A stretch of 64,000 nucleotides of DNA, from contig OZ024740.1 of assembly GCA_964016885.1 (NCBI GenBank), positions 110,670,001-110,734,000 of the forward strand. The letters are read 5' to 3'. A program made the position numbers and the translations under genes. The notes below the pieces were generated by a model. The model was not told the DNA's origin. It worked only from the letters and a program-made list of their open reading frames with translations, and did no database searches. How positions within the stretch are numbered: position 1 is the stretch's first letter; each line of letters begins with the position of its first letter. Below are positions 3,251 to 63,290 of the stretch, piece by piece. The DNA comes from Eledone cirrhosa (taxonomy: Eukaryota).

Positions 3251-3265
3251 ACATACATAGATACA

Positions 3266-3425
3266 TGGTGGTGGCTGCCAACTCGTTTTCGTGTAGTACG
3301 GCCACTACTTTATATCCATGTAGGAGAACCCCTACCGATGCGCTAAACAAGTGTGACTTTTTAGTCCAGCCAGCGACTTGAAAACTCTGGTACAAACACT
3401 ACACCTGTGACAATTATTGACACAT
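3266..3425 (-). mobile_element. Short 3' fragment of an RTE-UTR-like non-autonomous retroposon
   Basis: Near-identical to 18705-18858 and 59120-59272; shares the terminus GAGTTGGCAGCCAC. Confidence 0.75.
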
Positions 3426-3546
3426 AGATACATAGATACATACATACACACAGACATACGTAGACGCAAACATACATACATACACACTCATACATACATG
3501 CATACACACATATATATATGCATACATACACAAACACAATGCCATG

Positions 3547-3850
3547 AGGCTGAGTGGTTAGATTGTTCATTTCCTGATTGTAAGGTCGTGAATTACATTT
3601 TTGGTCGTGCTTTATGTCCTTAAGCAAGACATTTTATTTGCCGTTGCTCCTGTCCACTCGGCTGCAACAAGTGAGCCGTACTTGTAATTCAAAGTGTCAG
3701 CGTTGTCACGCACGCATGTGCCACACTGAATCACCTAGAGACTAGGGGTGTACATTTCTGTGGAATGTTCAGACACTTGCTCACCACTTTCACGAGTAGG
3801 CTGTTTCATTTTTCGAACAGTTGGAACACTCGTCGTCAAAACCAACGGAG
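3547..3850 (+). mobile_element. tRNA-derived SINE (family A), diverged
   Basis: A-box-like ggctgagtggtta and central tgtccttaagcaagacattttattt; similar to the 11838 and 14246 copies. Confidence 0.65.
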
Positions 3851-4316
3851 TTTCAACAACACCTGTATATGCATGTTTACACACACATATGCACATACGT
3901 GTGTTGTGTGCGTATAATGTACATCGTATATTTAAAGATTGATGGCAAATGTAATGTAGATCTAACAAAAATGTTTTTAGTTACAAACTTTCGTAGTTAA
4001 AAGAATGAACACTTTCCAAGAAATAAGACATTGTGCATTTCGGACATTTTTATAGCCTCGTCTCACTATATAGAACCTTATGATTTTGTATAAAGAGAAA
4101 CATTGCAATAGCGATACTAGATATGAAAAACAGTGTGTAGAATATAGTTGAAATAGTCAGTCTAATTTGCATGACTGGCATATTTTTTGCAATCTAATTA
4201 ATGAAATAATTGATATTCATGCTACAACACAGCATGTATTAAAAGATTCAATGTTAAGTGTTTAAATTGGAAGCCTCGCTGAGAAAAGACACACACACAC
4301 ATACACGCGCGCGCGC

Positions 4317-4363
<47 letters not shown>

Positions 4364-4455
4364 ATGATTAAGTATCGAGAGAGAGAAAAAAGGAAAGATA
4401 GGAGATACATATATTTAGTGGGCGAGAAAAAATACAAGGAGTTTAAAACCGTTAG

Positions 4456-4553
<98 letters not shown>

Positions 4554-4554
<1 letters not shown>

Positions 4555-6230
4555 TGAAGTCAAAATTGAGCTTATGGAAGGACACTAATGAAGTAATTGA
4601 CTGGTTTAAAAATATAGAAAATAAGAAAAATCACAAATTCATTCAAATGGACATAGCAAGTTATTCTTCTTCTATTACACCAAACCTATTAAATAAGGCT
4701 TTGTCTTATGCTTACAAACATACAGATCTAACTGCAGATGAAATCAATATCATATTAACTGCTAGAAGAACTCTAATTAATGTTTACAATGAGTATTGGA
4801 CCCGTTCAGATAGGAATAGAAACTTTGACATTACCATGGGATCATCGGACTCTGTGCAGGTTACCGATTTTCTGGGTATTTTTATCCTAAATATGGTAAA
4901 TAGAAAACTGCCGGAGATTACCGGTGGTTTATATAGGGACGATATTTTATTTACGGTTGTCAAGCATAGCAATACAGAACTAAATAGGGTTAAGAAAACT
5001 ATAATTGAATTCTTTAAAAATTACGACCTTAAATTAGAAGTTGAAAGTAGTACCAAAATAGTTAATTTCCTTGACGTCACCCTTAACTTAAACTCAGGAT
5101 TTTATTACCCTTTCCATAAGCCCAATGTAAACTTAAATTACGTTGGCTATTACTCTAATCACCCTAAATCCGTGAAAAATGCAATAGTCAATAGTGTACA
5201 GAAACGCATAACTAGAATATCCGCTAATAAATCCATATTTGATGAAAAAGCAGGATACTATAATGACGCGCTACGTAAGGCAGGTTATAAAAATAATATT
5301 GAATATATAGATAATACTAATTTGGATTATAATCCAGTTAAAAATAAGACTAACATAAATAAACTAGATTCTAAAAATTATTTAAATAATACAAACACCA
5401 ATACCGTGAATAAACCGGGGGAAAAATCAGAACTAAATCAATTATATGGTTTGCTCCTCCCGCATCCGTAGCAATCAAAACACCACTGGCAAATCTATTC
5501 TTTAAAGCTTTAGATAAATGTTTTCCCATAAAACATAAATACCGTTCCATATTTAACAGACACACAATTAAGCTTTCTTTTTCTACAACTATGAATATGG
5601 CCCAGAACATTGCAAAAATAAATAGTAGAATTCTAAATCATAACCAACAAACAATTAGGGATAATGAATATATTAACACTAGCAATATTAATACTGGGAA
5701 TAACAATAACATTAATTTAAGCACTACCAATAGAACACTTCCAAGTACTGGCAATGTTAATGTCAATTGTCCAATTTATAGTAATAACAATAAATCGAAA
5801 TGTAATTGTAGAAATAGATCAAATTGCCCTCTACAAAATAATTGTCTGGATAGCAATCTGGTCTATAAATGCACCGTAAAAGCAAATAACATCACATACA
5901 ACTTCATCGACATTTAAATTAAGATTTTCGAATCACAAATATTCTTTCTCGAATCCTAATAGGAAACTTTCGACCTCTTTATCACAACTTATATGGTCAT
6001 TAAAAGACAAATATTTAAAATACTCGATTTCTTGGTCCAAGCTATGTAATGGTCAAATCTACTTGAATTCTTCAATATCACCTAACTGCAATCTTTGTAC
6101 TGTGGAGACCCTATTAATAATTACTAATTATGATAATTTAATTAACAAAAAAAGTGAATTATTCTCAAATTGCTTACATAAAGCTTCTTCTACATTCCAA
6201 GCATCACAAAAAGTCAGGAAAAAACATTGA
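4554..6230 (+). pseudogene. Naiad-like PLE RT plus GIY-YIG ORF, 5'-truncated and frameshifted
   Basis: WKDTNEVIDWF, FIQMDI, FDITMGS, GLYRDD, NFLDV, SNHP, IIWFAPP, FNRHTIKLSFS, CNCR..CPL..CL..LVY, CNLC..E, KSELFSNCLH; stop at 6228-6230. Frameshifts near 5420-5465 and 5910. Confidence 0.88.
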
Positions 6231-8238: not shown

Positions 8239-8305
8239 TATTTTATCTGATGAGGAAGTACTGTTGAAGATAGCTCAGTACCTCTGAAATATGTATAATA
8301 AAATA
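8239..8305 (+). ncRNA. Type I hammerhead ribozyme at the 3' end of the Naiad-like element
   Basis: tattttat CTGATGA ggaagtactg..cagtacctct GAAA tatgta TA ataaaata: perfect 8-bp stem I and about 10-bp stem II. Confidence 0.9.
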
Positions 8306-8357: not shown

Positions 8358-9070
8358 ATATAAACGGAAAAAATGAAACGAAATTTCATTTCTCACTCTT
8401 AGTAAGGCTGTTACTTAAATATAAGTATGTATATGTACATACATATATGTATACAGACGTACAGTAGAATGTATAATATATACATACATGCACACATATA
8501 TATATATATATGTACGTATGGATTTACCGAACATTTATTATAATGCTCGGTGTGTTTGTAAACAAACATCCCGAATTAAGCCGTACAGTGTTTAGCAACC
8601 ATCGTTGCCCTTTCGTTCAACACTGACAAAGGAAAGATGTACTAGTTTCAAGCGTATTAGCTATCGTCAGCACTGTATACCTTCCTGCCAGATGATTGAA
8701 CGTCTGAAAGTATATACTTTCCTTATGCATATTAACGGCTCAGCAGCCTAATTTGCATATCGACTGAGTTAATCGGCCGGGCGCACCGAAAACGATAAAC
8801 GGAAAAAATGAAACGAAATTTGATTTCTCATTCTTAGTACGGCTTTTACTTAAATATAAAAATCCATACGTACATATATATGTGTGCATGTATGTATATA
8901 TATATACATACTACTGTACGTCTGTATACATATATGTATGTACGTGTACATACTTATATTTAAGTAACAGCCGTACTAAGAGTGAGAAATGAAATTTCGT
9001 TTCATTTTTTCCGTTTATCGTTTTCGGTGCGCCCGTCCGATTAACTCACTCGATATTCAAATTAGGCTGT
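8358..9070 (-). mobile_element. Non-coding HHR-bearing retrozyme-like element, copy 1 (about 1.2 tandem units plus an inverted segment)
   Basis: taaacggaaaaaatgaaacg at 8361 and 8796 gives a 435-bp period; 8905-9070 is an inverted copy; one HHR per unit; no ORF. Confidence 0.75.
8631..8686 (-). ncRNA. Type I hammerhead ribozyme
   Basis: Minus strand: ggaaggtatacagtg CTGACGA t-agc-taatac-gct-t GAAA ctag TA catctttcc; palindromic stem III. Confidence 0.85.
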
Positions 9071-19073: not shown

Positions 19074-19263
19074 AACGAAGGAATTGTGGTAAGGAACCAG
19101 ATGGACCATAAAGTAACAGAGAACTCAATACTTAGGGTAGTAGAGTGGGTAATAGGAAAAAATATGACCCCGACGGCAGAATTCAAGCCGTTTCGACGGC
19201 TATTTCAGTCCAGAAATAGCCGTCGAAACGGCTCGAGCTCTGCCGTCGGGGACATACTTTTTC
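19074..19263 (-). mobile_element. Palindromic half-HHR element, copy 1
   Basis: Arms 19156-19206 and 19213-19263; homologous to 50211-50408; flanked by (TA)n. Confidence 0.8.
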
Positions 19264-19295
19264 ATATATATATATATTATATATATATATATATA

Positions 19296-19630
19296 TAATA
19301 TATAAGATCAAAAGATGGTTAAAAGAGTTCCATATATTTTATTATGCGCATTTCAAAAACAAATATCATCATGCGATGACATTTGCGTTAAAACTGCACT
19401 ATTCACAAGTGTTTTTTAACCTTCATATCATGTCTCCCTATTTTATCTGACGAAAACGCAAATGTCATCGCATGATGATATTTGTTTTTGAAATGCGCAT
19501 AATAAAATACATGGAACTCTTTTAACCATCTTTTGATCTTATATATTATTTATACTCCAGTCCTACAAACTGTAGAGTGCTACTTATCCGATATCTGCAT
19601 TGCTTTATTGTACAATAAAACTCACCTCCT
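19296..19630 (+). mobile_element. Solo pLTR-like fragment with 5' inverted duplication
   Basis: 19296-19389 is the reverse complement of 19454-19549; contains an HHR; ends near AATAAA at 19614. Confidence 0.78.
19439..19509 (+). ncRNA. Type I hammerhead ribozyme
   Basis: tattttat CTGACGA aaacgcaaatgtcatc-gcat-gatgatatttgttttt GAAA tgcgca TA ataaaata; stem I identical to the 8239 motif; palindromic TGCGCA. Confidence 0.9.
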
Positions 19631-23844: not shown

Positions 23845-23966
23845 CAAGGCCAGCAATTACCCAGTGCATTACTGGTACTTTATTTTATCGACCCCGTAAG
23901 GATGAAAGGCAAAGTCAACCTCGGCGGGATTTGAACTCAGATCGTAAAGGGACGTAACTATGCTGA
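23845..23966 (-). mobile_element. SINE family B, partial
   Basis: Matches 12136-12256; abuts the pLTR fragment at ctatgctgaat. Confidence 0.8.
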
Positions 23967-24008
23967 ATCTTAACCATCTACTATGTCAGGGTATGTCATG
24001 TATCATCT

Positions 24009-24075
24009 TATTTTATCTGATGAGGACGTACTGTTGGACTTAACTCAGTACCTCTGAAATATGTATAATAAAATA
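24009..24075 (+). ncRNA. Type I hammerhead ribozyme in a solo pLTR fragment (about 23962-24210)
   Basis: tattttat CTGATGA ggacgtactg..cagtacctct GAAA tatgta TA ataaaata; flanks homologous to 8190-8350. Confidence 0.9.
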
Positions 24076-24206
24076 TAATTGATCACAAGAATATATATTT
24101 TGTTAATATTTTGAATTAATATTAATAACTCTGGAAAACCTGCTGTTGAGTGCTTCCAATCTATTGTAAAACTCATTCTTTGATGTATTCATTGAATCTT
24201 GTTTAA

Positions 24207-24277
<71 letters not shown>

Positions 24278-24857
24278 TAGACATGAAGTGACTAACAACA
24301 GAATGTTGTAGTCACTTTTAGTGTTCTAACATATATGTGTAGATCTTCAATTTTTTTTCAAGGTCTGGCCTTGGCCGTGGTGATTACATGCTATTGGCTA
24401 ATTTTCAACCAATCAGAGAAAGTGTTGCTCAAAAGCATCCACCATGTTTTTTTGTTTGTTTTCCTAGTTCATTTATTTTTGTTATTTCGTCGTTATATGA
24501 TTTTTTAGAATTTATATTAACTATTTTTAAAACAAATGTAATATACCTCATTAATTTGCTCAGGGAATAAAGAAAATTTATATAGACTGATAATTGCAAT
24601 TGTATGTAAATATTTTATTTTTATATTGTTTATTTATTTTATGTTTTCTATTATGTATAATATATATATTTAATATTGATTGTTTTTTGTTGTTGTTTAT
24701 ATTAAAATCTGAAAATATTTTTATACATCTTACACTAATATTTATAAGATCATTTATAATAACAATTATATAATCTAATTACATTACAACGATAATTTAT
24801 TATTAATGTATATCGTGTTTAACTAGAGTTATTACAAGCGTTGCCTTAAAAAAATAT

Positions 24858-25690
24858 TAAACTAGACATGAAAAATGCGCAAGCTCAAAAGAGCCACAGA
24901 ATGTTTTAATAAACCTTCAAAAGTGTGGGACTAGAGTTGTTACTCAAAAATATTGTAATCATTATCTATCGTATTTTCTGTGGCATCCTTTATAAAAATA
25001 TCACAATAAATACATCTATGTTTAATGTAATAACAGCTATAAATAATTACGTAATATTATTATCATATACTCATAGTCTCTTTTTTATAAAATCTGTGGC
25101 ATCCTTTTATAAAAAAGAGACTCATAAGGAACTCAAGACGACACGATAATTAATTAAGTGAATTTGTAATATAGAATTCGGTTTAAGTGCATTTCGTATT
25201 AATCATTACTAAACATCTAATATGAGTTATTGGAGATTACCTTAAACCAACCTTGCCTTTCTTTTTACACTATTTCACTGCATGCAAATTAATATGAGAT
25301 CATGATATTAGATATAAGATACAGCAGAATATCTACATCTGCAAAGGTACGAAAGCGAAGTAATGATAAATGGCTTAAGGTAATTCCAATATGAAAGTTT
25401 GCAGTGATGAAAATTTGATGATACACTACGATTGTTAATGTTATAGTTCGATGAAAATGTAACAATATATAACTAAATATATTTATAATAATATTACGTA
25501 ATTATTTATAGCTGTTATTACATTAAACATAGATGTATTTATTGTGATATTTTTTATAAAGGATGCCACAGAATGTACGATAGATAATGATTTCAATATT
25601 TTTGAGTAACAACTCTAGTCCCACACTTTAAAGGTTTATTATAACATTATGTGGCTCTTTTGAGCTTGCGCATTGTTCATGTCTAGTTTA
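24858..25690. mobile_element. MITE- or foldback-like element with about 205-bp terminal inverted repeats
   Basis: 24858-25062 is the reverse complement of 25487-25690 (taaactagacatg...catgtctagttta); non-coding interior. Confidence 0.8.
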
Positions 25691-25911
25691 TAAACACAAG
25701 CGACGAGCGATGTTTAGAATTGAGAGAGAAATAGAAGTTTCGCCGTAATATTTTGACTATGCAATTTAGTCTAATAATATACCCTCTGATCGGAAAAAAG
25801 ATAGGTATCAGCATACATGGGTACGAACCCACACCTTGCGTTTGCCGGCCGTGTACTTTACCATTACGCTGATACCCATCTTTCTCCGTTCAGTGGGTGT
25901 CTATGCCGCAT

Positions 25912-26100
25912 TGGTGGATTGGCAGTATCGGTAGAGTGTCAGACACAATGCTTTCCAGCAAAGAGTTATGTCCCTTTCCGGTCTGAGTTCAAATCCTGCC
26001 GAGGTTAACTTTGCCTTTCATCCTTACGAGGTCGATAAAATAAAGTACCAGTAATGCACTGGGATAATTGCAGGCCTTGTGCCAAATGTAGAAACAATAA
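25912..26100 (+). mobile_element. tRNA-derived SINE (family B)
   Basis: tggcagtatcggtagag...gagttcaaatcc...ggtcgataaaataaagtaccag...ggccttgtgcc. Confidence 0.85.
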
Positions 26101-26158: not shown

Positions 26159-26256
<98 letters not shown>

Positions 26257-26257
<1 letters not shown>

Positions 26258-26885
26258 GTAAGAGGTGCACTGGCAACCGACGTTTATGTGAAAGCTATAT
26301 CTGTATAAATTCAGAGTGTCTAACCGTGACTACCCCGACGTGTATAAATAGATACATACATATCTAATTTGTAGACATGTAAACATTTTATTGAATGCTC
26401 ACCAGAAGATGTGTATATCATTCAATCTACCACAATGAAACATGTATTTGATGGGTATATAAATCCATTCCTTGTTAGTATCATTCTGAAATGGATGTAC
26501 TATTTTGTATATCATTTTCTCAATTTACAGGGACATTCGTATTTCCTGGCATGTTAAATTAGATATGCGTATATATTTATACATCTTGGTGCAGTCTTGG
26601 TTACCCACTCTGTATTTATACAGATATAACTTTCTCATACACTTCAGCTGCTAGCGCACCTCTTACTATATATATTAATTAATTAGCAGCACTAGTGCTA
26701 ATTATATGCAAATTAGTATGTCCATTTCAGAATATACTAAGACTGAATGTGTATATATACCCATCAACTACATGCTTACTTGTGATTGATTTTATGATAT
26801 ACACATGTTCAGGTAAGGATTCAATAAAATACGAAAATTGATTAAAGATGTTTAACATTTTTTTCAATTTACAGGAAATTCGTAC
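26257..26885. mobile_element. Old pLTR-like inverted structure with decayed HHRs
   Basis: Inverted pairs 26257-26379/26550-26667 and 26386-26510/26704-26830; CAGAAGA...GAAAcatgTA at 26403-26446. Confidence 0.6.
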
Positions 26886-37477: not shown

Positions 37478-37798
37478 CATGCACACACATACACATACAC
37501 ATTGCAGAAAGGATATTCTACTCCCCAAATATTGAATTAAATGTTTCAAATCCATAACTAGAAGTCACCCGTGTCCCTGCTTATGGGATCTCTCAATTTG
37601 GTGAAAAATGTTGAACAGTATATTATTACTATTGTTGTTTTTTGTTGTCTTTGTGTTTGTCGTTGTTGTTGCTGCCCTTGTTTTTGCTGTTGTTGCTGTC
37701 GTTGTTTATTTCCATGCCAATCCTGATTAAACAGACCCAATATCAAAAGCATTCCAGCCGTAATCAGCGTCTCTTTCTAACGACAAGTTGAAATTAAT

Positions 37799-40700
37799 GT
37801 TACTCCTGTATTTCAGAGTCAGTTTAGCTCAGATCAAGCATGTTGCTCCTGTATTTCAGAGTCAGTTTAGCTCAGATCAAGCAGGTTGCTGCTGTATTTC
37901 AGAATCAGTTTAGCTCAGATCAAGCAGGTTGCTCCTGTATTTCAGAGTCAATTTAGCTCAGATCAAGCAGGTTGCTCCTGTATTTCAGAGTCAGTTTAAC
38001 TCAGATAAAGCAGGTTGCTCCTGTATTTCAGAGTCAGTTTAGCTCAGATCAAGCAGGTTGCTCCTGTATTTCAGAGTCAGTTTAACTCAGATCAAGCATG
38101 TTGCTCCTGTATTTCAGAGTCAGTTTACTCAGATCAAGCAGGTTGCTGCTGTATTTCAGAGTCAGTTTAGCTCAGATCAAGCAGGTTGCTCCTGTATTTC
38201 AGAGTCAGTTTAGCTCAGATCAAGCAGGTTGCTCCTGTATTTCAGAGTCAGTTTAGCTCAGATCAAGCATGTTGCTCCTGTATTTCAGAGTCAGTTTAAC
38301 TCAGATCAAGCAGGTTGCTGCTGTATTTCAGAGTCAGTTTAGCTCAGATCAAGCAGATTTCTGCTGTATTTCAGAGTCAGTTTAGCTCAGATCAAGCAGG
38401 TTGCTCCTGTATTTCAGAGTCAGTTTCGCTCAGATCAAGCAGGTTGCTCCTGTATTTCAGAGTCAGTTTAGCTCAGATCAAGCATGTTGCTGCTGTATTT
38501 CAGAGTCAGTTTAACTCAGATCAAGCATGTTGCTCCTGTATTTCAGAGTCAGTTTAACTCAGATCAAGCAGGTTGCTCCTGTATTTCAGAGTCAGTTTAG
38601 CTCAGATCAAGCAGGTTGCTCCTGTATTTCAGAGTCAGTTTAACTCAGATCAAGCATGTTGCTCCTGTATTTCAGAGTCAGTTTAGCTCAGAAGAAGCAG
38701 GTTGCTCCTGTATTTAAGAGTCAGTTTAACTCAGATCAAGCAGGTTGCTCCTTTATTTCAGAGTCAGTTTAACTCAGATCAAGCAGGTTGCTCCTGTATT
38801 TCAGAGTCAGTTTAACTCAGATCAAGCATGTTGCCCCTGTATTTCAGAGTCAGTTTAACTCAGATCAAGCAGGTTGCTCCTGTATTTCAGAGTCAGTGTA
38901 ACTCAGAACAAGCAGGTTGCTCCTGTATTTCAGAGTCAGATTAGCTCACATCAAGCATGTTGCTCCTGTATTTCAGAGTCAGTTTAGCTCAGATCAAGCA
39001 TGTTGCTTCTGTATTTCAGAGTAAGTTTAACTCAGATCAAGCATGTTGCTCCTGTATTTCAGAGTCAGTTTAACTCAGATCAAGCAGGTTGCTCCTGTAT
39101 TTCAGAGTCAGTTTAGCTCAGACCAAGCAGGTTGCTCCTGTATTTCAGAGTCAGTTTAACTCAGATCAAGCAGGTTGCTCCTGTATTTCAGAGTCAGTTT
39201 AACTCAGATCAAGCAGGTTGCTCCTGTATTTCAGAGTCAGTTTAACTCAGATCAAGCAGGTTGCTCCTGTATTTCAGAGTCAGTTTAGCTCAGATCAAGC
39301 AGGTTGCTCCTGTATTTCAGAGTCAGTTTAACTCAGATCAAGCAGGTTGCTCCTGTATTTCAGAGTCAGTTTAACTCAGATCAAGCAGGTTGCTCCTGTA
39401 TTTCAGAGTCAGTTTAAATCAGATCAAGCATGTTGCTCCTGTATTTCAGAGTCAGTTTAGCTCAGATCAAGCAGGTTGCTGCTGTATTTCAGAGTCAGTT
39501 TAGCTCAGATCAAGCAGGTTGCTCCTGTATTTCAGAGTCAGTTTAGCTCAGATCAAGCAGGTTGCTCCTGTATTTCAGAGTCAGTTTAGCTCAGATCAAG
39601 CATGTTGCTCCTGTATTTTAGAGTCAGTTTAACTCAGATCAAGCAGGTTGCTCCTGTATTTCAGAGTCAGTTTAGCTCAGATCAAGCATGTTGCTCCTGT
39701 ATTTCAGAGTCAGTTTAGCTCAGATCAAGCAGATTGCTGCTGTATTTCAGAGTCAGTTTAGCTCAGATCAAGCAGGTTGCTCCTGTATTTCAGAGTCAGT
39801 TTCGCTCAGATCAAGCAGGTTGCTCCTGTATTTCAGAGTCAGTTTAGCTCAGATCAAGCAGGTTGCTGCTGTATTTCAGAGTCAGTTTAACTCAGATCAA
39901 GCAGGTTGCTCCTGTATTTCAGAGTCAGTTTAACTCAGATCAAGCAGGTTGCTCCTGTATTTCAGAGTCAGTTTAGCTCAGATCAAGCAGGTTGCTCCTG
40001 TATTTCAGAGTCAGTTTAACTCAGATCAAGCAGGTTGCTCCTGTATTTCAGAGTCAGTTTAACTCAGATCAAGCAGGTTGCTCCTGTATTTCAGAGTCAG
40101 TTTAACTCAGATCAAGCAGGTTGCTCCTGTATTTCAGAGTCAGTTTAACTCAGATCAAGCAGGTTGCTCCTGTATTTCAGAGTCAGTTTAGCTCAGAAGA
40201 AGCAGGTTGCTCCTGTATTTCAGAGTCAGTTTAACTCAGATCAAGCAGGTTGCTCCTGTATTTCAGAATCAGTTTAACTCAGATCAAGCAGGTTGCTCCT
40301 GTATTTCAGAGTCAGTTTAACTCAGATCAAGCAGGTTGCCCCTGTATTTCAGAGTCAGTTTAACTCAGATCAAGCAGGTTGCTCCTGTATTTCAGAGTCA
40401 GTTTAACTCAGATCAAGCAGGTTGCCCCTGTATTTCAGAGTCAGTTTAACTCAGATCAAGCAGGTTGCTCCTGTAATTCAGAGTCAGTTTAACTCAGATC
40501 AAGCAGGTTGCTCCTTTATTTCAGAGTCAGTTTAACTCAGATCAAGCAGGTAGCTCCTGTATTTCAGAGTCAGTTTAACTCAGATCAAGCATGTTGCCCC
40601 TGTATTTCAGAGTCAGTTTAACTCAGATCAAGCAGGTTGCTCCTGTATTTCAGAGTCAGTTTAACTCAGAACAAGCAGGTTGCTCCTGTATTTCAGAGTC

Positions 40701-43700
40701 AGTTTAGCTCAGATCAAGCATGTTGCTTCTGTATTTCAGAGTAAGTTTAACTCAGATCAAGCATGTTGCTCCTGTATTTCAGAGTCAGTTTAACTCAGAT
40801 CAAGCAGGTTGCTCCTGTATTTCAGAGTCAGTTTAGCTCAGACCAAGCAGGTTGCTCCTGTATTTCAGAGTCAGTTTAACTCAGATCAAGCAGGTTGCTC
40901 CTGTATTTCAGAGTCAGTTTAACTCAGATCAAGCAGGTTGCTCCTGTATTTCAGAGTCAGTTTAACTCAGATCAAGCAGGTTGCTCCTGTATTTCAGAGT
41001 CAGTTTAGCTCAGATCAAGCAGGTTGCTCCTGTATTTCAGAGTCAGTTTAACTCAGATCAAGCAGGTTGCTCCTGTATTTCAGAGTCAGTTTAACTCAGA
41101 TCAAGCAGGTTGCTCCTGTATTTCAGAGTCAGTTTAAATCAGATCAAGCATGTTGCTCCTGTATTTCAGAGTCAGTTTAGCTCAGATCAAGCAGGTTGCT
41201 GCTGTATTTCAGAGTCAGTTTAGCTCAGATCAAGCAGGTTGCTCCTGTATTTCAGAGTCAGTTTAGCTCAGATCAAGCAGGTTGCTCCTGTATTTCAGAG
41301 TCAGTTTAGCTCAGATCAAGCATGTTGCTCCTGTATTTTAGAGTCAGTTTAACTCAGATCAAGCAGGTTGCTCCTGTATTTCAGAGTCAGTTTAGCTCAG
41401 ATCAAGCATGTTGCTCCTGTATTTCAGAGTCAGTTTAGCTCAGATCAAGCAGATTGCTGCTGTATTTCAGAGTCAGTTTAGCTCAGATCAAGCAGGTTGC
41501 TCCTGTATTTCAGAGTCAGTTTCGCTCAGATCAAGCAGGTTGCTCCTGTATTTCAGAGTCAGTTTAGCTCAGATCAAGCAGGTTGCTGCTGTATTTCAGA
41601 GTCAGTTTAACTCAGATCAAGCAGGTTGCTCCTGTATTTCAGAGTCAGTTTAACTCAGATCAAGCAGGTTGCTCCTGTATTTCAGAGTCAGTTTAGCTCA
41701 GATCAAGCAGGTTGCTCCTGTATTTCAGAGTCAGTTTAACTCAGATCAAGCAGGTTGCTCCTGTATTTCAGAGTCAGTTTAACTCAGATCAAGCAGGTTG
41801 CTCCTGTATTTCAGAGTCAGTTTAACTCAGATCAAGCAGGTTGCTCCTGTATTTCAGAGTCAGTTTAACTCAGATCAAGCAGGTTGCTCCTGTATTTCAG
41901 AGTCAGTTTAGCTCAGAAGAAGCAGGTTGCTCCTGTATTTCAGAGTCAGTTTAACTCAGATCAAGCAGGTTGCTCCTGTATTTCAGAATCAGTTTAACTC
42001 AGATCAAGCAGGTTGCTCCTGTATTTCAGAGTCAGTTTAACTCAGATCAAGCAGGTTGCCCCTGTATTTCAGAGTCAGTTTAACTCAGATCAAGCAGGTT
42101 GCTCCTGTATTTCAGAGTCAGTTTAACTCAGATCAAGCAGGTTGCCCCTGTATTTCAGAGTCAGTTTAACTCAGATCAAGCAGGTTGCTCCTGTAATTCA
42201 GAGTCAGTTTAACTCAGATCAAGCAGGTTGCTCCTTTATTTCAGAGTCAGTTTAACTCAGATCAAGCAGGTAGCTCCTGTATTTCAGAGTCAGTTTAACT
42301 CAGATCAAGCATGTTGCCCCTGTATTTCAGAGTCAGTTTAACTCAGATCAAGCAGGTTGCTCCTGTATTTCAGAGTCAGTTTAACTCAGAACAAGCAGGT
42401 TGCTCCTGTATTTCAGAGTCAGTTTAGCTCAGATCAAGCATGTTGCTTCTGTATTTCAGAGTAAGTTTAACTCAGATCAAGCATGTTGCTCCTGTATTTC
42501 AGACTCAGTTTAACTCAGATCAAGCAGGTTGCTCCTGTATTTCAGAGTCAGTTTAGCTCAGACCAAGCAGGTTGCTCCTGTATTTCAGAGTCAGTTTAAC
42601 TCAGATCAAGCAGGTTGCTCCTGTATTTCAGAGTCAGTTTAACTCAGATCAAGCAGGTTGCTCCTGTATTTCAGAGTCAGTTTAACTCAGATCAAGCAGG
42701 TTGCTCCTGTATTTCAGAGTCAGTTTAGCTCAGATCAAGCAGGTTGCTCCTGTATTTCAGAGTCAGTTTAACTCAGATCAAGCAGGTTGCTCCTGTATTT
42801 CAGAGTCAGTTTAACTCAGATCAAGCAGGTTGCTCCTGTATTTCAGAGTCAGTTTAACTCAGATCAAGCAGGTTGCTCCTGTATTTCAGAGTCAGTTTAA
42901 CTCAGATCAAGCAGGTTGCTCCTGTATTTCAGAGTCAGTTTAGCTCAGATCAAGCAGGTTGCTCCTGTATTTCAGAGTCAGTTTAACTCAGATCAAGCAG
43001 GTTGCTCCTGTATTTCAGAGTCAGTTTACTCAGATCAAGCAGGTTGCTGCTGTATTTCAGAGTCAGTTTAGCTCAGATCAAGCAGGTTGCTCCTGTATTT
43101 CAGAGTCAGTTTAGCTCAGATCAAGCAGGTTGCTCCTGTATTTCAGAGTCAGTTTAGCTCAGATCAAGCATGTTGCTCCTGTATTTCAGAGTCAGTTTAA
43201 CTCAGATCAAGCAGGTTGCTGCTGTATTTCAGAGTCAGTTTAGCTCAGATCAAGCAGATTTCTGCTGTATTTCAGAGTCAGTTTAGCTCAGATCAAGCAG
43301 GTTGCTCCTGTATTTCAGAGTCAGTTTCGCTCAGATCAAGCAGGTTGCTCCTGTATTTCAGAGTCAGTTTAGCTCAGATCAAGCATGTTGCTGCTGTATT
43401 TCAGAGTCAGTTTAACTCAGATCAAGCATGTTGCTCCTGTATTTCAGAGTCAGTTTAACTCAGATCAAGCAGGTTGCTCCTGTATTTCAGAGTCAGTTTA
43501 GCTCAGATCAAGCAGGTTGCTCCTGTATTTCAGAGTCAGTTTAACTCAGATCAAGCATGTTGCTCCTGTATTTCAGAGTCAGTTTAGCTCAGAAGAAGCA
43601 GGTTGCTCCTGTATTTAAGAGTCAGTTTAACTCAGATCAAGCAGGTTGCTCCTTTATTTCAGAGTCAGTTTAACTCAGATCAAGCAGGTTGCTCCTGTAT

Positions 43701-46700
43701 TTCAGAGTCAGTTTAACTCAGATCAAGCATGTTGCCCCTGTATTTCAGAGTCAGTTTAACTCAGATCAAGCAGGTTGCTCCTGTATTTCAGAGTCAGTGT
43801 AACTCAGAACAAGCAGGTTGCTCCTGTATTTCAGAGTCAGATTAGCTCACATCAAGCATGTTGCTCCTGTATTTCAGAGTCAGTTTAGCTCAGATCAAGC
43901 ATGTTGCTTCTGTATTTCAGAGTAAGTTTAACTCAGATCAAGCATGTTGCTCCTGTATTTCAGAGTCAGTTTAACTCAGATCAAGCAGGTTGCTCCTGTA
44001 TTTCAGAGTCAGTTTAGCTCAGACCAAGCAGGTTGCTCCTGTATTTCAGAGTCAGTTTAACTCAGATCAAGCAGGTTGCTCCTGTATTTCAGAGTCAGTT
44101 TAACTCAGATCAAGCAGGTTGCTCCTGTATTTCAGAGTCAGTTTAACTCAGATCAAGCAGGTTGCTCCTGTATTTCAGAGTCAGTTTAAATCAGATCAAG
44201 CATGTTGCTCCTGTATTTCAGAGTCAGTTTAGCTCAGATCAAGCAGGTTGCTGCTGTATTTCAGAGTCAGTTTAGCTCAGATCAAGCAGGTTGCTCCTGT
44301 ATTTCAGAGTCAGTTTAGCTCAGATCAAGCAGGTTGCTCCTGTATTTCAGAGTCAGTTTAGCTCAGATCAAGCATGTTGCTCCTGTATTTTAGAGTCAGT
44401 TTAACTCAGATCAAGCAGGTTGCTCCTGTATTTCAGAGTCAGTTTAGCTCAGATCAAGCATGTTGCTCCTGTATTTCAGAGTCAGTTTAGCTCAGATCAA
44501 GCAGATTGCTGCTGTATTTCAGAGTCAGTTTAGCTCAGATCAAGCAGGTTGCTCCTGTATTTCAGAGTCAGTTTCGCTCAGATCAAGCAGGTTGCTCCTG
44601 TATTTCAGAGTCAGTTTAGCTCAGATCAAGCAGGTTGCTGCTGTATTTCAGAGTCAGTTTAACTCAGATCAAGCAGGTTGCTCCTGTATTTCAGAGTCAG
44701 TTTAACTCAGATCAAGCAGGTTGCTCCTGTATTTCAGAATCAGTTTAGCTCAGATCAAGCAGGTTGCTCCTGTATTTCAGAGTCAGTTTAACTCAGATCA
44801 AGCAGGTTGCTCCTGTATTTCAGAGTCAGTTTAACTCAGATCAAGCAGGTTGCTCCTGTATTTCAGAGTCAGTTTAACTCAGATCAAGCAGGTTGCTCCT
44901 GTATTTCAGAGTCAGTTTAACTCAGATCAAGCAGGTTGCTCCTGTATTTCAGAGTCAGTTTAGCTCAGAAGAAGCAGGTTGCTCCTGTATTTCAGAGTCA
45001 GTTTAACTCAGATCAAGCAGGTTGCTCCTGTATTTCAGAATCAGTTTAACTCAGATCAAGCAGGTTGCTCCTGTATTTCAGAGTCAGTTTAACTCAGATC
45101 AAGCAGGTTGCCCCTGTATTTCAGAGTCAGTTTAACTCAGATCAAGCAGGTTGCTCCTGTATTTCAGAGTCAGTTTAACTCAGATCAAGCAGGTTGCCCC
45201 TGTATTTCAGAGTCAGTTTAACTCAGATCAAGCAGGTTGCTCCTGTAATTCAGAGTCAGTTTAACTCAGATCAAGCAGGTTGCTCCTTTATTTCAGAGTC
45301 AGTTTAACTCAGATCAAGCAGGTAGCTCCTGTATTTCAGAGTCAGTTTAACTCAGATCAAGCATGTTGCCCCTGTATTTCAGAGTCAGTTTAACTCAGAT
45401 CAAGCAGGTTGCTCCTGTATTTCAGAGTCAGTTTAACTCAGAACAAGCAGGTTGCTCCTGTATTTCAGAGTCAGTTTAGCTCAGATCAAGCATGTTGCTT
45501 CTGTATTTCAGAGTAAGTTTAACTCAGATCAAGCATGTTGCTCCTGTATTTCAGACTCAGTTTAACTCAGATCAAGCAGGTTGCTCCTGTATTTCAGAGT
45601 CAGTTTAGCTCAGACCAAGCAGGTTGCTCCTGTATTTCAGAGTCAGTTTAACTCAGATCAAGCAGGTTGCTCCTGTATTTCAGAGTCAGTTTAACTCAGA
45701 TCAAGCAGGTTGCTCCTGTATTTCAGAGTCAGTTTAACTCAGATCAAGCAGGTTGCTCCTGTATTTCAGAGTCAGTTTAGCTCAGATCAAGCAGGTTGCT
45801 CCTGTATTTCAGAGTCAGTTTAACTCAGATCAAGCAGGTTGCTCCTGTATTTCAGAGTCAGTTTAACTCAGATCAAGCAGGTTGCTCCTGTATTTCAGAG
45901 TCAGTTTAACTCAGATCAAGCAGGTTGCCCCTGTATTTCAGAGTCAGTTTAACTCAGATCAAGCAGGTTGCTCCTGTATTTCAGAATCAGTTTAACTCAG
46001 ATCGAGCAGGTTCCTCCTGTATTTCAGAATCAGTTTAACTCAGATCAAGCAGGTTGCTCCTGTATTTCAGAATCAGTTTAGCTCAGATCAAGCATGTTGC
46101 TTCTGTATTTCAGAGTAAGTTTAGCTCAGATCAAGCAGATTGCTCCTGTATTTTAGAGTCAGTTTAGCTCAGATAAAGCAGGTTGCTCCTGTATTTCAGA
46201 GTCAGTTTAACTCATATCAAGCAGGTTGCTCCTGTATTTCAGAGTCAGTTTAGCTCAGATCAAGCAGGTTGCTCCTGTATTTCAGAGTCAGTTTAGCTCA
46301 GATCAAGCATGTTGCTTCTGTATTTCAGAGTAAGTTTAACTCAGATCAAGCATGTTGCTCCTGTATTTCAGACTCAGTTTAACTCAGATCAAGCAGGTTG
46401 CTCCTGTATTTCAGAGTCAGTTTAGCTCAGACCAAGCAGGTTGCTCCTGTATTTCAGAGTCAGTTTAACTCAGATCAAGCAGGTTGCTCCTGTATTTCAG
46501 AGTCAGTTTAACTCAGATCAAGCAGGTTGCTCCTGTATTTCAGAGTCAGTTTAACTCAGATCAAGCAGGTTGCTCCTGTATTTCAGAGTCAGTTTAGCTC
46601 AGATCAAGCAGGTTGCTCCTGTATTTCAGAGTCAGTTTAACTCAGATCAAGCAGGTTGCTCCTGTATTTCAGAGTCAGTTTAACTCAGATCAAGCAGGTT

Positions 46701-49700
46701 GCTCCTGTATTTCAGAGTCAGTTTAACTCAGATCAAGCAGGTTGCCCCTGTATTTCAGAGTCAGTTTAACTCAGATCAAGCAGGTTGCTCCTGTATTTCA
46801 GAATCAGTTTAACTCAGATCGAGCAGGTTCCTCCTGTATTTCAGAATCAGTTTAACTCAGATCAAGCAGGTTGCTCCTGTATTTCAGAATCAGTTTAGCT
46901 CAGATCAAGCATGTTGCTTCTGTATTTCAGAGTAAGTTTAGCTCAGATCAAGCAGATTGCTCCTGTATTTTAGAGTCAGTTTAGCTCAGATAAAGCAGGT
47001 TGCTCCTGTATTTCAGAGTCAGTTTAACTCATATCAAGCAGGTTGCTCCTGTATTTCAGAGTCAGTTTAGCTCAGATCAAGCAGGTTGCTCCTGTATTTC
47101 AGAGTCAGTTTAACTCAGATCAAGCAGGTTGGTCCTGTATTTCAGAGTCAGTTTAGCTCAGATCAAGCAGGTTGCTGCTGTATTTCAGAGTCAGTTTAAC
47201 TCAGATCAAGCAGGTTGCACCTGTATTTCAGAGTCAGTTTAACTCAGATCAAGCAGGTTGCTCCTGTATTTCAGAGTCAGTTTAGCTCAGATCAAGCAGG
47301 TTGCTCCTGTATTTCAGAGTCAGTTTAACTCAGATCAAGCAGGTTGCTCCTGTATTTCAGAGTCAGTTTAACTCAGATCAAGCAGGTTGCTCCTGTATTT
47401 CAGAGTCAGTTTAACTCAGATCAAGCAGGTTGCTCCTGTATTTCAGAGTCAGTTTAACTCAGATCAAGCAGGTTGCTCCTGTATTTCAGAGTCAGTTTAG
47501 CTCAGAAGAAGCAGGTTGCTCCTGTATTTCAGAGTCAGTTTAACTCAGATCAAGCAGGTTGCTCCTGTATTTCAGAATCAGTTTAACTCAGATCAAGCAG
47601 GTTGCTCCTGTATTTCAGAGTCAGTTTAACTCAGATCAAGCAGGTTGCGCCTGTATTTCAGAGTCAGTTTAACTCAGATCAAGCAGGTTGCTCCTGTATT
47701 TCAGAGTCAGTTTAACTCAGATCAAGCAGGTTGCCCCTGTATTTCAGAGTCAGTTTAACTCAGATCAAGCAGGTTGCTCCTGTATTTCAGAGTCAGTTTA
47801 ACTCAGATCAAGCAGGTTGCTCCTTTATTTCAGAGTCAGTTTAACTCAGATCAAGCAGGTTGCTCCTGTATTTCAGAGTCAGTTTAACTCAGATCAAGCA
47901 TGTTGCCCCTGTATTTCAGAGTCAGTTTAACTCAGATCAAGCAGGTTGCTCCTGTATTTCAGAGTCAGTTTAACTCAGAACAAGCAGGTTGCTCCTGTAT
48001 TTCAGAGTCAGTTTAGCTCAGATCAAGCATGTTGCTTCTGTATTTCAGAGTAAGTTTAACTCAGATCAAGCAGGTTGCTCCTGTATTTCAGAGTCAGTTT
48101 AACTCAGATCAAGCAGGTTGCCCCTGTATTTCAGAGTCAGTTTAACTCAGATCAAGCAGGTTGCTCCTGTATTTCAGAATCAGTTTAACTCAGATCAAGC
48201 AGGTTGCTCCTGTATTTCAGAATCAGTTTAACTCAGATCAAGCAGGTTGCTCCTGTATTTCAGAATCAGTTTAGCTCAGATCAAGCATGTTGCTTCTGTA
48301 TTTCAGAGTAAGTTTAGCTCAGATCAAGCAGATTGCTCCTGTATTTTAGAGTCAGTTTAGCTCAGATAAAGCAGGTTGCTCCTGTATTTCAGAGTCAGTT
48401 TAACTCATATCAAGCAGGTTGCTCCTGTATTTCAGAGTCAGTTTAGCTCAGATCAAGCAGGTTGCTCCTGTATTTCAGAGTCAGTTTAACTCAGATCAAG
48501 CAGGTTGGTCCTGTATTTCAGAGTCAGTTTAGCTCAGACCAAGCAGGTTGCTCCTGTATTTCAGAGTCAGTTTAACTCAGATCAAGCAGGTTGCTCCTGT
48601 ATTTCAGAGTCAGTTTAACTCAGATCAAGCAGGTTGCTCCTGTATTTCAGAGTCAGTTTAACTCAGATCAAGCAGGTTGCTCCTGTATTTCAGAGTCAGT
48701 TTAGCTCAGATCAAGCAGGTTGCTCCTGTATTTCAGAGTCAGTTTAACTCAGATCAAGCAGGTTTCTCCTGTATTTCAGAGTCAGTTTAACTCAGATCAA
48801 GCAGGTTGCTCCTGTATTTCAGAGTCAGTTTAACTCAGATCAAGCAGGTTGCCCCTGTATTTCAGAGTCAGTTTAACTCAGATCAAGCATGTTGCTCCTG
48901 TATTTCAGAATCAGTTTAACTCAGATCAAGCAGGTTGCTCCTGTATTTCAGAATCAGTTTAGCTCAGATCAAGCAGGTTGCTCCTGTATTTCAGAGTCAG
49001 TTTAACTCAGATCAAGCAGGTTGCTGCTGTATTTCAGAGTCAGTTTAGCTCAGATCAAGCATGTTGCTCCTGTATTTCAGAGTCAGTTTAGCTCAGATCA
49101 AGCAGGTTGCTCCTGTATTTCAGAGTCAGTTTAGCTCAGATAAAGCAGGTTGCTCCTGTATTTCAGAGTCAGTTTAGCTCAGATCAAGCAGGTTGCTCCT
49201 GTATTTCAGAGTCAGTTTAGCTCAGATCAAGCAGGTTGCTCCTGTATTTCAGAGTCAGTTTAACTCAGATCAAGCATGTTGCTCCTGTATTTCAGAGTCA
49301 GTTTAGCTCAGATCAAGCAGGTTGCTCCTGTATTTCAGAGTTAGTTTAGCTCAGATCAAGCAGATTGCTCCTGTATTTTAGAGTCAGTTTAGCTCAGATA
49401 AAGCAGGTTGCTCCTGTATTTCAGAGTCAGTTTAATTCATATCAAGCAGGTTGCTCCTGTATTTCAGAGTCAGTTTAGCTCAGATCAAGCAGGTTGCTCC
49501 TGTATTTCAGAGTCAGTTTAACTCAGATAAATCAGGTTGCTCCTGTATTTCAGAGTCAGTTTAGCTCAGATCAAGCAGGTTGCTCCTGTATTTCCGAGTC
49601 AGTTTAGCTCAGATAAAGCAGGTTGCTCCTGTATTTCAGAGTCAGTTTAGCTCAGATCAAGCAGGTTGCTGCTGTATTTCAGAGTCAGTTTAACTCAGAT

Positions 49701-49837
49701 CAAGCAGGTTGCTCCTGTATTTCAGAGTCAGTTTAGCTCAGATAAAGCAGGTTGCTCCTGTATTTCAGAGTCAGTTTAACTCAGATCAAGCAGGTTGCTG
49801 CTGTATTTCAGAGTCAGTTTAGCTCAGATGAAGCAGG
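37799..49837. repeat. 43-bp satellite array, about 280 units, with higher-order repeats
   Basis: Unit gttgctcctgtatttcagagtcagttta(a/g)ctcagatcaagcag, contiguous over about 12,040 bp with no spacers. Confidence 0.98.
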
Positions 49838-50136: not shown

Positions 50137-50210
50137 GCTCTCTCTCTCTCCCTCTCTATCTATCTCACCCCTCTCTCTCCCTTTCACTCTTTATGTATAT
50201 ATATATATAT

Positions 50211-50406
50211 ATAGGAAAATGTTCAAGACCCCGACGGCAGAGCTCAAGCCGTTTCGACGGCTATTTCTGGACCGAAATAGCCGTCGAAACGGCTTGAGCT
50301 CTGCCGTCGGGGTCTTGAATATTTTCCTATTACCCACTCTACTACCCTAAGTATTGAGTACTTTGGTGCGTTATGGTCTATCTGATTCCTTACCACACTT
50401 CCTTCG

Positions 50407-50408
<2 letters not shown>
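50211..50408 (+). mobile_element. Palindromic half-HHR element, copy 2
   Basis: 57-bp arms 50211-50267 and 50274-50330 (one mismatch) with loop tggacc, plus a unique tail to 50408; flanked by (TA)n. Confidence 0.82.
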
Positions 50409-50456
<48 letters not shown>

Positions 50457-55834: not shown

Positions 55835-56023
55835 GCGAGAGAATGAGTCTGCAGTACTAAGACAGAAGAGACCACTAATCATGGGAGTACTCAATGCATG
55901 GGGAGATCAGAGGGGGCATAGAGATAGGTATAAATCCGGCCGCGGCGTCAAGCGGTTTCGGATTTACAAAGGCTTGCTGAACACACAAGCCGAAACCGTT
56001 TATCGCCGCGATCGGGATTATAC
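55835..56023 (-). mobile_element. Palindromic half-HHR element, diverged copy 3
   Basis: Imperfect arms 55928-55963 and 55988-56023; minus-strand tail (attgagtact...tggtct..tctg) resembles 50330-50400. Confidence 0.6.
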
Positions 56024-58895: not shown

Positions 58896-59119
58896 ATAAT
58901 AATGAAGTACAAATATACAGGTTAGAATTCACTTCATTTATTCACAATCGGTATTATATATATTTCGGTGGTAACGGTTACACAACAGTTATGACTTCAT
59001 CAGAAAAAACACAATGAAGAAATAAAATTTACTTCTGTTTTTTGGTTTCGTTGACATGCCCGGGTTGATATGTGGTCTTGCTTTCTCAAAGCACCGGTGA
59101 CATATGTATATATATACAT

Positions 59120-60455: not shown

Positions 60456-60462
60456 ATATATA

Positions 60463-63290
60463 TAAATTACAGAATAATCAAAACTATGTTCAAAACATTT
60501 TATTGCTGACAATCGTTTCTTCCAAACTTCCGTTTGGAATCATCTCAGCAGCACTAGCAACGTTTAGACATATAATTAACCTCCTATTCCACAGAACAAT
60601 TGCAAAGATACGTAGATATTAGTGTTGTCATTAACAGTGTCATATTTAAAGAGTGAAGATGATGTGGTCAGTATCAGTGGATGCGACAAAGATTATAACA
60701 GAATACAACAATTATAGAGGAATTAAAGAAGAAAGTTACTCGCAAAATAAGGACATTAGTGGTACATATACAAACGTATAGAAAGAGTGCAGAGGTATTA
60801 GGCATATACAGAATAACTAGGTAAGAAACAAGCAATGGTATTAAGCATATATATCACAGTATGGCAAAGGTATCACATAACACAATACAGGTATGAAAGT
60901 ATATTAAGCAGACAGTGATGCGTGGGTATGAAAAGCAGTTTCTATGAAGTTTATGGTGGATGCAGTGTGATAATTGTTCCGGTCATGTTCAAATGTGCAT
61001 GTATTGTGAGTATTTATATCAAGGTTTTCCTTTCCATTACATTGGTTATATTTTAGTAAATGTTTATTACTAGCCACAACTATGGATTGTATATTGCTCC
61101 TATTACAATCTTATCAAGGGTTAGAGTTGTTCTGGAGTGATCTGCCTAACGGTTTAATTCAGGAAGAGTACGAAGGGTAATATCAAACTTAACTACCATC
61201 AAAATAAACACCCCAATAATAATAATAATATAAACAGAAATATAAACAATACCTCAAATAACATTACAAAAAACAAAAATAGAACTAATACATTTTTCAA
61301 TCTAAACCTATCCACCAACTTGCCGAAGGCTTTCTTTTCAATCTTGTAAAATTACTTCCCAGTCGGCCAAAAATACCATAATCTTATCAATAAAAACACC
61401 ATTAAAATCTCTTACTCTACGACACCTAACATCGCGTACCATATAGTTAGTCGTAATAAAAGGAAGATTAATAATTATTTCCAACTAATTAGATCGCAAC
61501 AGGGGGTGAACTTACACAACAATATAGTACCAGAGAATTCTAGTAGCAATAATAATAATAGTAATAACACTAATGAAATTAATAACATTGAAATGATAAT
61601 CATCATTACCCTAATGCTATCCCTAACAAACAGAACTTGTCCCTTAGGAAAAAAATTGCTTAATCAAAAACATCATTTACTCATGCACAGTCATTACAAA
61701 CAACACTTCAAAAACATATCGGTTCTACTTCGAACTGGTTCAAGACGAGATATAACTCGCATCTTCACACTTTAAAAAATCGCAATCTAGCCAACTCCAC
61801 TTCTTTATCTAACTACATACACTCTCTGAAAACTAAGAATAGACCATATACACTTCAATGGGAAGTAATGTATAGGGCCGCATCGTATAAACCACCGAAT
61901 GGATTATGTAACCTCTCTCTTCTAGAGACTCGCACTATAATCTATTCTAAACTAAACCTTTTAAATAGAAAATCAAAAATGTTTTCCATGTGCCAACACT
62001 ACCACCGACAATCTTTCCACAACTTCAAACCTAGCTGTTAGTATATAACAATGTCAGATCTGGATTCCTCAACACCGTTAACACTTTACCTCTAGGTTTT
62101 ATCAGTATATAATTACCCCCACAGCATCACATTCTATGATCAGCTCATTCTTCCACTTATCTCCTGTTTATCTACAATAACTATTTGGAATAAACATAAA
62201 GTTACCACCATTTATTATAACTACAATAACTTCCTTACTAATATTTTATTCATTTAATTAATATATGGGTAGGTAGGTAGTGATAAAATGAGACATTTAA
62301 AATATTATATAGAAAAAAGATTGTATATAAAATTAAATATATAAATTTTAAAATAAATAGCATTATATAAAAAGGATTCACTTATAACATAATATATTGT
62401 ATATTAACACATATAATTTAACTAATTGGAGTTGTAAACAACTATACATTTTTCTCTTATACACACATTTATCGCCAATTACCTCCCTTTCCCATTAGCT
62501 CCCCTTAGTGCAGGTCTCTAATCACTTCCTGAAATTAAACCGTTAGACAGATCACTCAAGAACAACTCTAACCCTTAATAAGATTATAATAGGAGCAATA
62601 TACAATCCATAGTTGTAGCTAGTGATAAACATTTACTAAAATATAACCAATGTAATGGAAAGGAAAACCTTAATATTAATACTCACAACACATGCACATT
62701 TGAACATTACCGGAACAATTATCACTTTGCATCCACCATAAACTTCATAGAAACTGCTTTTCATACCCACGCATCTCTGTCTACTTAATATGCTTTTATA
62801 CCTGCATTGTGTTATATGATACCTTTGCCATACTGTGATATATATGTTTAGTACCATTGCTTGTTTCTTACCTGGTTATTCTGTACATGCCTAATACCTC
62901 TGCACTCTTTCTATACGTTTGTATATGTACTGCTAATGTCCTCATTTTGTGAATAACTTTTTTCTTTAATTCCTCTATAATTGTTGTATTCTTTTATAAT
63001 CTTTGTCGCATCCACTGATACTGACCACATCATCTTCACTCTTTAAATATGACACTGTTAATCACAACACTAACATCTACGTATTTTTGCAATTGTTCTG
63101 TGGAATAGGAGGTTAATTATATGTCTAAACGTTGCTAGTGCTGCTGAGATGATTCCAAACGGAAGTTTGGAAAAAACGATTGTTAGCAATAAAATGTTTT
63201 GAACATAGTTTTAATTATTCTATAATTTATATTCCGGCTCTGTAAAACATCTGATATATTTACATTGATCTATTTTTCTTAGTGGTAATA
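60463..63290 (+). mobile_element. 5'-truncated Naiad-like PLE with inverted 5' pLTR copy
   Basis: 60463-61166 is the reverse complement of 62525-63229. The interior 61200-62041 encodes decayed NKNTIKISYSTTPNI, TCPLG, FKTRYNSH, STSLSNYI, LCNL, LLNRKS...CQH. Confidence 0.88.

Follow-up and report, generated by a model that had tools for sequence, protein, structure and literature searches.

A family of short palindromes was analyzed in a 64,000-nucleotide (nt) stretch of the genome of Eledone cirrhosa (NCBI GenBank assembly GCA_964016885.1, contig OZ024740.1, positions 110,670,001 to 110,734,000 of the forward strand), hereafter the window. A Penelope-like element (PLE) of the Hydra clade, which inserts in (TA)n, has left copies in a series of lengths, and the palindromes form its short end. 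Three copies, A to C, are present in the window. Copy A (50211-50408, plus strand) consists of a near-perfect 120-nt palindrome followed by a 78-nt tail, with TA runs at both sides, and its arms (50211-50272 and 50274-50330) are 95% complementary across the 120 nt. Positions in the element are numbered from the A of AGTCCAG (+1), which lies in loop II of a hammerhead ribozyme.

50211-50272, minus strand: inverted arm of copy A, a reverse copy from +2 to the inner fixed end, adjoining a TA run
50273, no strand: junction base of copy A, a single head-to-head base explained by neither arm
50274-50330, plus strand: direct arm of copy A, starting at +7
50276-50285, plus strand: 3' strand of stem II, from the sequence and the fold of parent L126
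50286-50289, plus strand: GAAA, on the same basis
50290-50306, plus strand: stem III, on the same basis
50307-50308, plus strand: UC, with the predicted cut between 50308 and 50309
from 50309, plus strand: 3' strand of stem I, from the sequence and the fold of parent L126
50331-50408, plus strand: tail of copy A, spanning the interval between both fixed ends
50409-50450, no strand: (TA)n target run of copy A; a shorter TA run lies opposite, at about 50197-50212
19074-19267, minus strand: copy B, of copy A's family and another subfamily, 89% identical to copy A; tail 19074-19151, direct arm to 19206, inverted arm 19207-19263
55835-56023, minus strand: copy C, from a sister family that shares the design of fold-back plus tail; its stem III is covaried (CCGC/GCGG)

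The inner fixed end lies at about +60 in general and at +62 in the subfamily of copy A. The first-pass annotation had listed the three copies as one palindromic family whose arms carry the 3' half of a type I hammerhead. The family is real and includes copies A and B. Copy C belongs to the sister family instead: it gave no BLASTN match to A or B at E<=10, its best matches elsewhere were 82% identical, and copies of that family mostly end in (TC)n. The arm motifs GAAA, CGGC..GCCG, TC and GGGGTC were present as described, and the direct arm does correspond to the 3' half of a type I hammerhead, of which complete parents exist. In the window copies the 5' core box and the 5' strands of stems I and II are absent and replaced by the inverted arm; because this half is missing, the copies are predicted to be unable to self-cleave as they stand.

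Among 62 tail-anchored copies, eight contained upstream sequence past -200, which led into the 3' region and the frame encoding reverse transcriptase (RT) and GIY-YIG. The parent L138 encodes a single frame of 710 amino acids (aa) with YRDD and VIYQ..YIG, the combination that marks an endonuclease-positive (EN+) PLE. Atlas neighbours of this open reading frame (ORF) were found at 0.97-0.99, several of them with GIY-YIG, while Pfam and PDB sequence searches with it were blank. Hydra-clade PLEs are described as having an RWK-type motif, DKT, a CxCx5C linker and CxxC/CxH around E and N, without CCHH (Craig et al. 2021, PMC8557442; here and below, papers given by PMC or bioRxiv number are cited for excerpts of their text). 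The L138 ORF displayed RWR at 27, DKT at 109, CNCPDRSIC at 564, CNLC at 662 and CKH at 690, and CCHH was missing by eye, as the clade definition requires. By these motif marks and the (TA)n target, the parent is assigned to the Hydra clade. Parents L489 and L490 of the copy A subfamily connected to the same ORF at about 81% identity.

The parents displayed the PLE layout of partial tandems, an inverted 5'-truncated copy and a tail at one end, with TA repeats after the tail in 59 of 62 copies. In 25 of 30 ORF-start loci (one of them partly out of view), the end of the tail ran on into the ORF leader and reached the ATG after about 93 nt. The element is a circularly permuted partial tandem with the tail at the front of the ORF-bearing RNA, and since sequence continues past +138 into the leader, both fixed ends are internal RNA sites. 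The (TA)n target, the hammerhead in the repeat and the inverted 5'-truncated copy plus tail are shared with Hydra-clade PLEs (PMC8557442). The family differs in its tail (78 nt against 30-40 described), in its tens of thousands of 200-bp copies and in its length of about 3.5 kb with a 1.2-kb 3' region, against the <3 kb that is typical, and not defining, of the clade. Copy L024 lies outside a TA run, between direct repeats of about 14 bp that resemble a target-site duplication. Beside copies of the family, Penelope-like ORFs of another clade were observed in L140 (456-2597, minus strand, with a Pfam RVT_1 match) and L141 (6509-8528).

The parent hammerhead is arranged as ACCCC, TTGANAA, G, stem II, a long loop II, stem II, GAAA, stem III, TC and GGGGT. 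Its 5' half had 4,816 matches in the genome, and the pattern of the copy A subfamily had 88, all but three of them parent-like by eye. N7 could be any of the four bases, and position 8 was A in 100 of the 100 matches listed, though G was allowed; position 3 was U in 76 and C in 15 of 91 parent arms. The unconstrained minimum free energy structure of parent L126 was the three-way hammerhead fold with a 9-bp stem II, and parents L110 and L137 gave the fold only partially or with the core held open. Three stems, the core boxes, the 3-8 pair, G10.1-C11.1 and a UH site, which together identify a type I hammerhead, were all found, and stems II and III covary across related families. The parents carry a complete type I hammerhead with a U3-A8 core (TTGANAA), for which self-cleavage is predicted. 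The first-pass annotation had expected parents with a CTGANGA core. Complete parents were found, mostly with TTGANAA in its place; canonical CUGANGA is typical but not defining of the Hydra clade, and the listed Hydra motifs, including Hydra-1_oBim, are all CTGANGA (PMC8557442), unlike the U3-A8 core, long stem II and closed 5-bp stem III seen here. A search for CTGANGA upstream gave 37 matches, and those displayed were junction sequences or neighbouring DNA and not parents. Contrary to the first-pass annotation, the helix between the arms is not the ribozyme's stem II, whose true 5' strand is found farther upstream, in the parent. Rfam reported no hammerhead among 150 listed of 160 matches in the window.

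At least 25,522 short copies were counted in the 3.0-Gb genome with one pair of exact anchors, 22,025 of them with a gap of 65-125 nt between the anchors (main class) and 3,497 with a gap of 4-64 nt (shorter class). Of the 62 tail-anchored copies about 50 are short palindromes, and the anchors recovered only 20 of the 62, which puts the true total, as a rough estimate, probably close to 60,000. A 24-mer of the tail had 32,259 exact matches genome-wide, tandem arrays included, and exact palindromic centres numbered 16,516; the reversed controls of both gave 0, which excludes a chance origin of palindrome and tail. Part of the tail also forms a 58-bp tandem satellite at L488 (668-3001, contig 1 near 14.235 Mb) with at least 40 units, which stretches over about 16 kb judged by tail 24-mer matches. 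In L017/L018, L058/L326 and L358, whole short copies were inverted-duplicated with common changes, by real duplication or assembly artefact.

The outer ends were fixed and the centres were not. The outer end of the inverted arm fell on one same base in 188 of 235 copies, and in all 20 long inverted pairs that were fetched (L143 rearranged) one arm ended at +60 and the other at about +138. Among 59 short copies mapped, 46 different centres were found. This agrees with the earlier proposal that the second arm was remade many times, and the palindrome is therefore not a fixed miniature inverted-repeat transposable element (MITE). Of 100 main-class junctions, 37 had extra bases, 17 were flush and 46 overlapped. 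The inverted arm reached further upstream in 37 of these copies, the direct arm in 51, and 12 were ties; among the 20 long pairs, judged by eye, the inverted arm was longer in eight, the direct arm in seven, four agreed within 100 nt and one was unreadable. Where the inverted arm of a long pair was longer, its excess of 130 to 2,700 nt was absent from the direct arm. Both arms reached +1 with 3-30 bases between them in 4,653 copies. Runs of A or T of 10-17 nt, like untemplated addition or template-end slippage, were seen at the junctions of L050, L439 and other copies, and L048, L141 and L239 are tailless palindromes with both arms reaching the outer end (+138).

Of 95 copies examined, 88 could be assigned, and in 87 of these both arms came from one subfamily (random expectation 22%); two-subfamily arms were found in two of 127 copies. 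Differences between arms were unmirrored in 92 cases and mirrored in 29 (2,472 site pairs, 64 copies), with 23 of the 29 a common variant; on these counts, ongoing homogenisation of the arms was rejected. The distal differences between copies A and B are mirrored within each copy, as had been noted earlier, and parents exist with each signature. These differences are subfamily marks.

In the main class (gap <=125 nt), the further-reaching arm ended between -7 and +7 in 90 of 100 copies. The tail-anchored copies were free of this gap limit, and their direct arms started at -7 to +10 in 27, after +10 in 25, between -50 and -8 in two and beyond -200 in eight. The base at +1 stands in TTAGT or TCAGT in 68 of 79 parents, words that we take to resemble the initiator consensus. 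Because arm ends cluster near +1, because of this word and because of where the promoter of Penelope lies, we infer that the centres cluster at a transcription start in loop II. The promoter of Penelope is inside the repeat (PMC2377424).

A second cluster was found in the shorter class. One hundred of its copies had 56 clean ends between +20 and +55, of which 21 lay at +42, the base after GUC, and the next best position had five; in 13 copies both arms ended at +40 to +44, mostly with 1-6 extra bases between them. These junctions suggest that hammerhead-cut RNA serves as template in a few percent of events. The class was uneven among sources, with the tail variant CCCCAAG at 4 of 10 against 1 of 31. 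The variant CCTCAAG was found in 23 short copies and in none of five parent tails of one subfamily, and occurred also in 4 of 10 cut-ending copies.

These results are probably best explained as minimal PLE insertions, in which two cDNAs primed from both strands of the (TA)n target would each be extended to the RNA 5' end and joined head to head. By analogy with another PLE studied in vitro (Frangieh et al. 2024, PMC11167929), the PLE protein may nick and extend both target strands, and reverse transcription may start at two sites inside the RNA, which here would be +60 and +138. Both cDNAs would run to the 5' end of the RNA, their 3' ends would be joined, and the length of the arms would be set by the RNA start. 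An RNA started in loop II, with both sites in its leader, would give the 200-bp class; the +42 class would come from hammerhead-cut RNA, and kilobase arms from read-through RNA that escaped cutting.

Fold-back of a single cDNA, or of an antisense RNA (Arkhipova 2013), would instead prime the second arm by microhomology near the end, and not on stem II, with tip deletions giving the asymmetry. It fits the single subfamily of both arms in 87 of 88 copies and the 46 overlaps, and in print palindromic PLE junctions are explained by self-priming (PMC3846280). However, it predicts that one fixed arm is always longer, and the counts were 37:51 and 8:7. As either arm can be longer, fold-back is excluded unless one-sided deletion is frequent; any fold-back of the first cDNA, the first-pass version included, needs an inverted arm contained in the direct arm and conflicts with the same counts. 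The 4,653 copies with bases between two arms at +1 and the copies with arms of two subfamilies are also against fold-back, which we consider unlikely. Priming on stem II, as the first-pass annotation had proposed, is refuted as the main route and has almost no probability left. Parents do have a 9-bp stem II, but such priming predicts the inverted arm, the stem II 5' strand and the whole of loop II at the centre, a junction with one exact match and seven at <=1 mismatch against 16,516 centres whose mirror symmetry extends at least up to the edge of loop II; a mirror reaching into loop II is impossible from stem II priming. A palindromic MITE copied whole, with centres eroded later, would explain the fixed outer ends and the mostly unmirrored arm differences (92 vs 29). 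It is refuted by the parents and is just as improbable: the termini at the two ends do not match, an RT-GIY-YIG element has this sequence as its repeat, kilobase insertions have identical ends, and 46 centres were found among 59 copies. A possible likeness of the inverted arm to the 3' end of a tRNA is not needed as an explanation once the parent is known.

Two primers could also operate with clustered ends that mark stops of the reverse transcriptase at RNA structure or bound protein, at the loop II helix and the base of stem III. The foot of stem III coincides with +42 and that of a small loop II helix with +1 to +3, the sign of a cap G is weak, and +42 is independent of core genotype. In contrast, the stronger 9-bp stem II would need to be unwound first, long copies pass both sites, and the +42 ends are sharp and uneven among sources (CCCCAAG 4/10 vs 1/31) that have stem I and nearly all of stem III in common. 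We give this explanation as little weight as fold-back.

Several observations weigh against insertion from two primed cDNAs ending at RNA 5' ends, or against parts of it. The +42 class showed no link to core genotype, with four of 17 from a mostly C3.A8 subfamily and none from the U3-A8 'A' subfamily, and +42 is the foot of stem III as well as the cut. The loop II start and the cut are both read from DNA junctions only. The wall near -7 in the main class is partly built in by the 125-nt gap limit, and the TATA-like word at -29 to -31 is part of stem II and was demanded by the search pattern. The extra base at -1, a possible cap mark, was G in nine and A in five of 100 arms, a weak sign, as all nine G belonged by eye to one subfamily group; the pooled count of G at -1 was set aside since it includes loci chosen by a pattern that forces G. 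Arms of one subfamily are expected from fold-back as well, later deletion at palindrome centres could blur the arm asymmetry, and Rfam reported no hammerhead in parent L126. The copies examined were the first places on contig 1 and not a random draw.

In twin priming of L1, both target strands prime and two different RNA segments are copied; here both arms copy one same segment. Poseidon PAc of Anolis resembles the present family in two internal start sites that bracket the tail, in cutting and extension of both strands and in a product length set by the RNA 5' end (PMC11167929). It is from another clade and was studied in vitro only, joined products are not described in the excerpts, and its RNA-seq reads showed none at the hammerhead cut, whereas DNA junctions cluster at the cut here. 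Penelope of Drosophila virilis and Adineta vaga has a promoter inside the pseudo-LTR (long terminal repeat), inverted repeats of variable size, short palindromes at the inverted junction and an initiator-like word (PMC2377424, PMC3846280). Self-priming was proposed there, while the present counts favour two primers, and the excerpts describe no dominant minimal class. The U3-A8 hammerheads of Schistosoma Cercyon share the core covariation, the extra base between 9 and 10.1 and G10.1-C11.1, and their PLEs have motif pairs on opposite strands (Cervera and De la Pena 2014, PMC4209133); theirs are minimal and dimer-type, whereas the full stem III of the parent here would allow it to fold as a monomer. 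Non-LTR retrozymes are likewise short non-coding PLE derivatives, but head-to-tail and with whole ribozymes, unlike the present head-to-head copies without the catalytic 5' half (bioRxiv 10.64898/2026.07.22.740005).

Precedents exist for the layout of inverted copy plus tail, for the Hydra clade itself, for the U3-A8 core and for initiation at two sites. Literature titles and abstracts, in a search mostly outside subscription papers, contained none on the minimal head-to-head class or the cut-site class, and evidence from arm symmetry for PLE inverted repeats was not found in the literature searched. The family motifs were not found in the excerpts of the supplements of PMC8557442 or PMC13282606, and the family may already stand in octopus repeat libraries or Repbase.

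Other elements of similar kind are located in the window. Beside copy B, 19290-19554 is a fold-back element with a complete minimal hammerhead (CTGACGA..GAAA, palindromic stem III) and an inverted copy of its 3' part upstream. Further CTGANGA..GAAA motifs at 8247, 24017, 33770 and 13302 (plus strand) and at 59003, 14024 and 8670 (minus strand) resemble minimal PLE hammerheads of at least four families, none listed by Rfam. Broken ORF pieces lie at 2418-5917 (plus strand); the piece at 4419-5471, which shares 43% identity with the parent ORF along 250 aa, represents another Hydra-like family. Inverted repeats of 700 bp (95%) surround PLE-like C-terminal ORF pieces at 60460-63232, probably a long head-to-head insertion of another family, and more inverted repeats were found at 8744-9069 (with a spurious MIR2606 match), 23845-26079, 24858-25690 and 26249-26830. 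A 12-kb satellite of 43-bp units, about 281 copies, occupies about 37650-49830.

The origin of PLE inverted repeats and the role of PLE hammerheads were stated as open (Craig 2021, PMC8557442). The more than 25,000 natural junctions let rival models be separated by counting. The counts argue against the published self-priming and tie the two-start result in vitro to genomic structure, and the junctions point to the use of ribozyme-cut RNA. For annotators, hairpins that are abundant and look like MITEs or miRNAs can be by-products of a PLE, and scans for CUGANGA only miss the ribozyme of this family. A bolder combination, which we hold only tentatively and think somewhat doubtful, is that the junctions are a fossil map of PLE RNA 5' ends, which would prove two-strand priming for inverted repeats and give the first genomic sign of hammerhead-cut RNA reverse transcribed in vivo, and that some short copies are their own sources, a PLE that, like a short interspersed nuclear element (SINE), would rebuild its palindrome at each jump.
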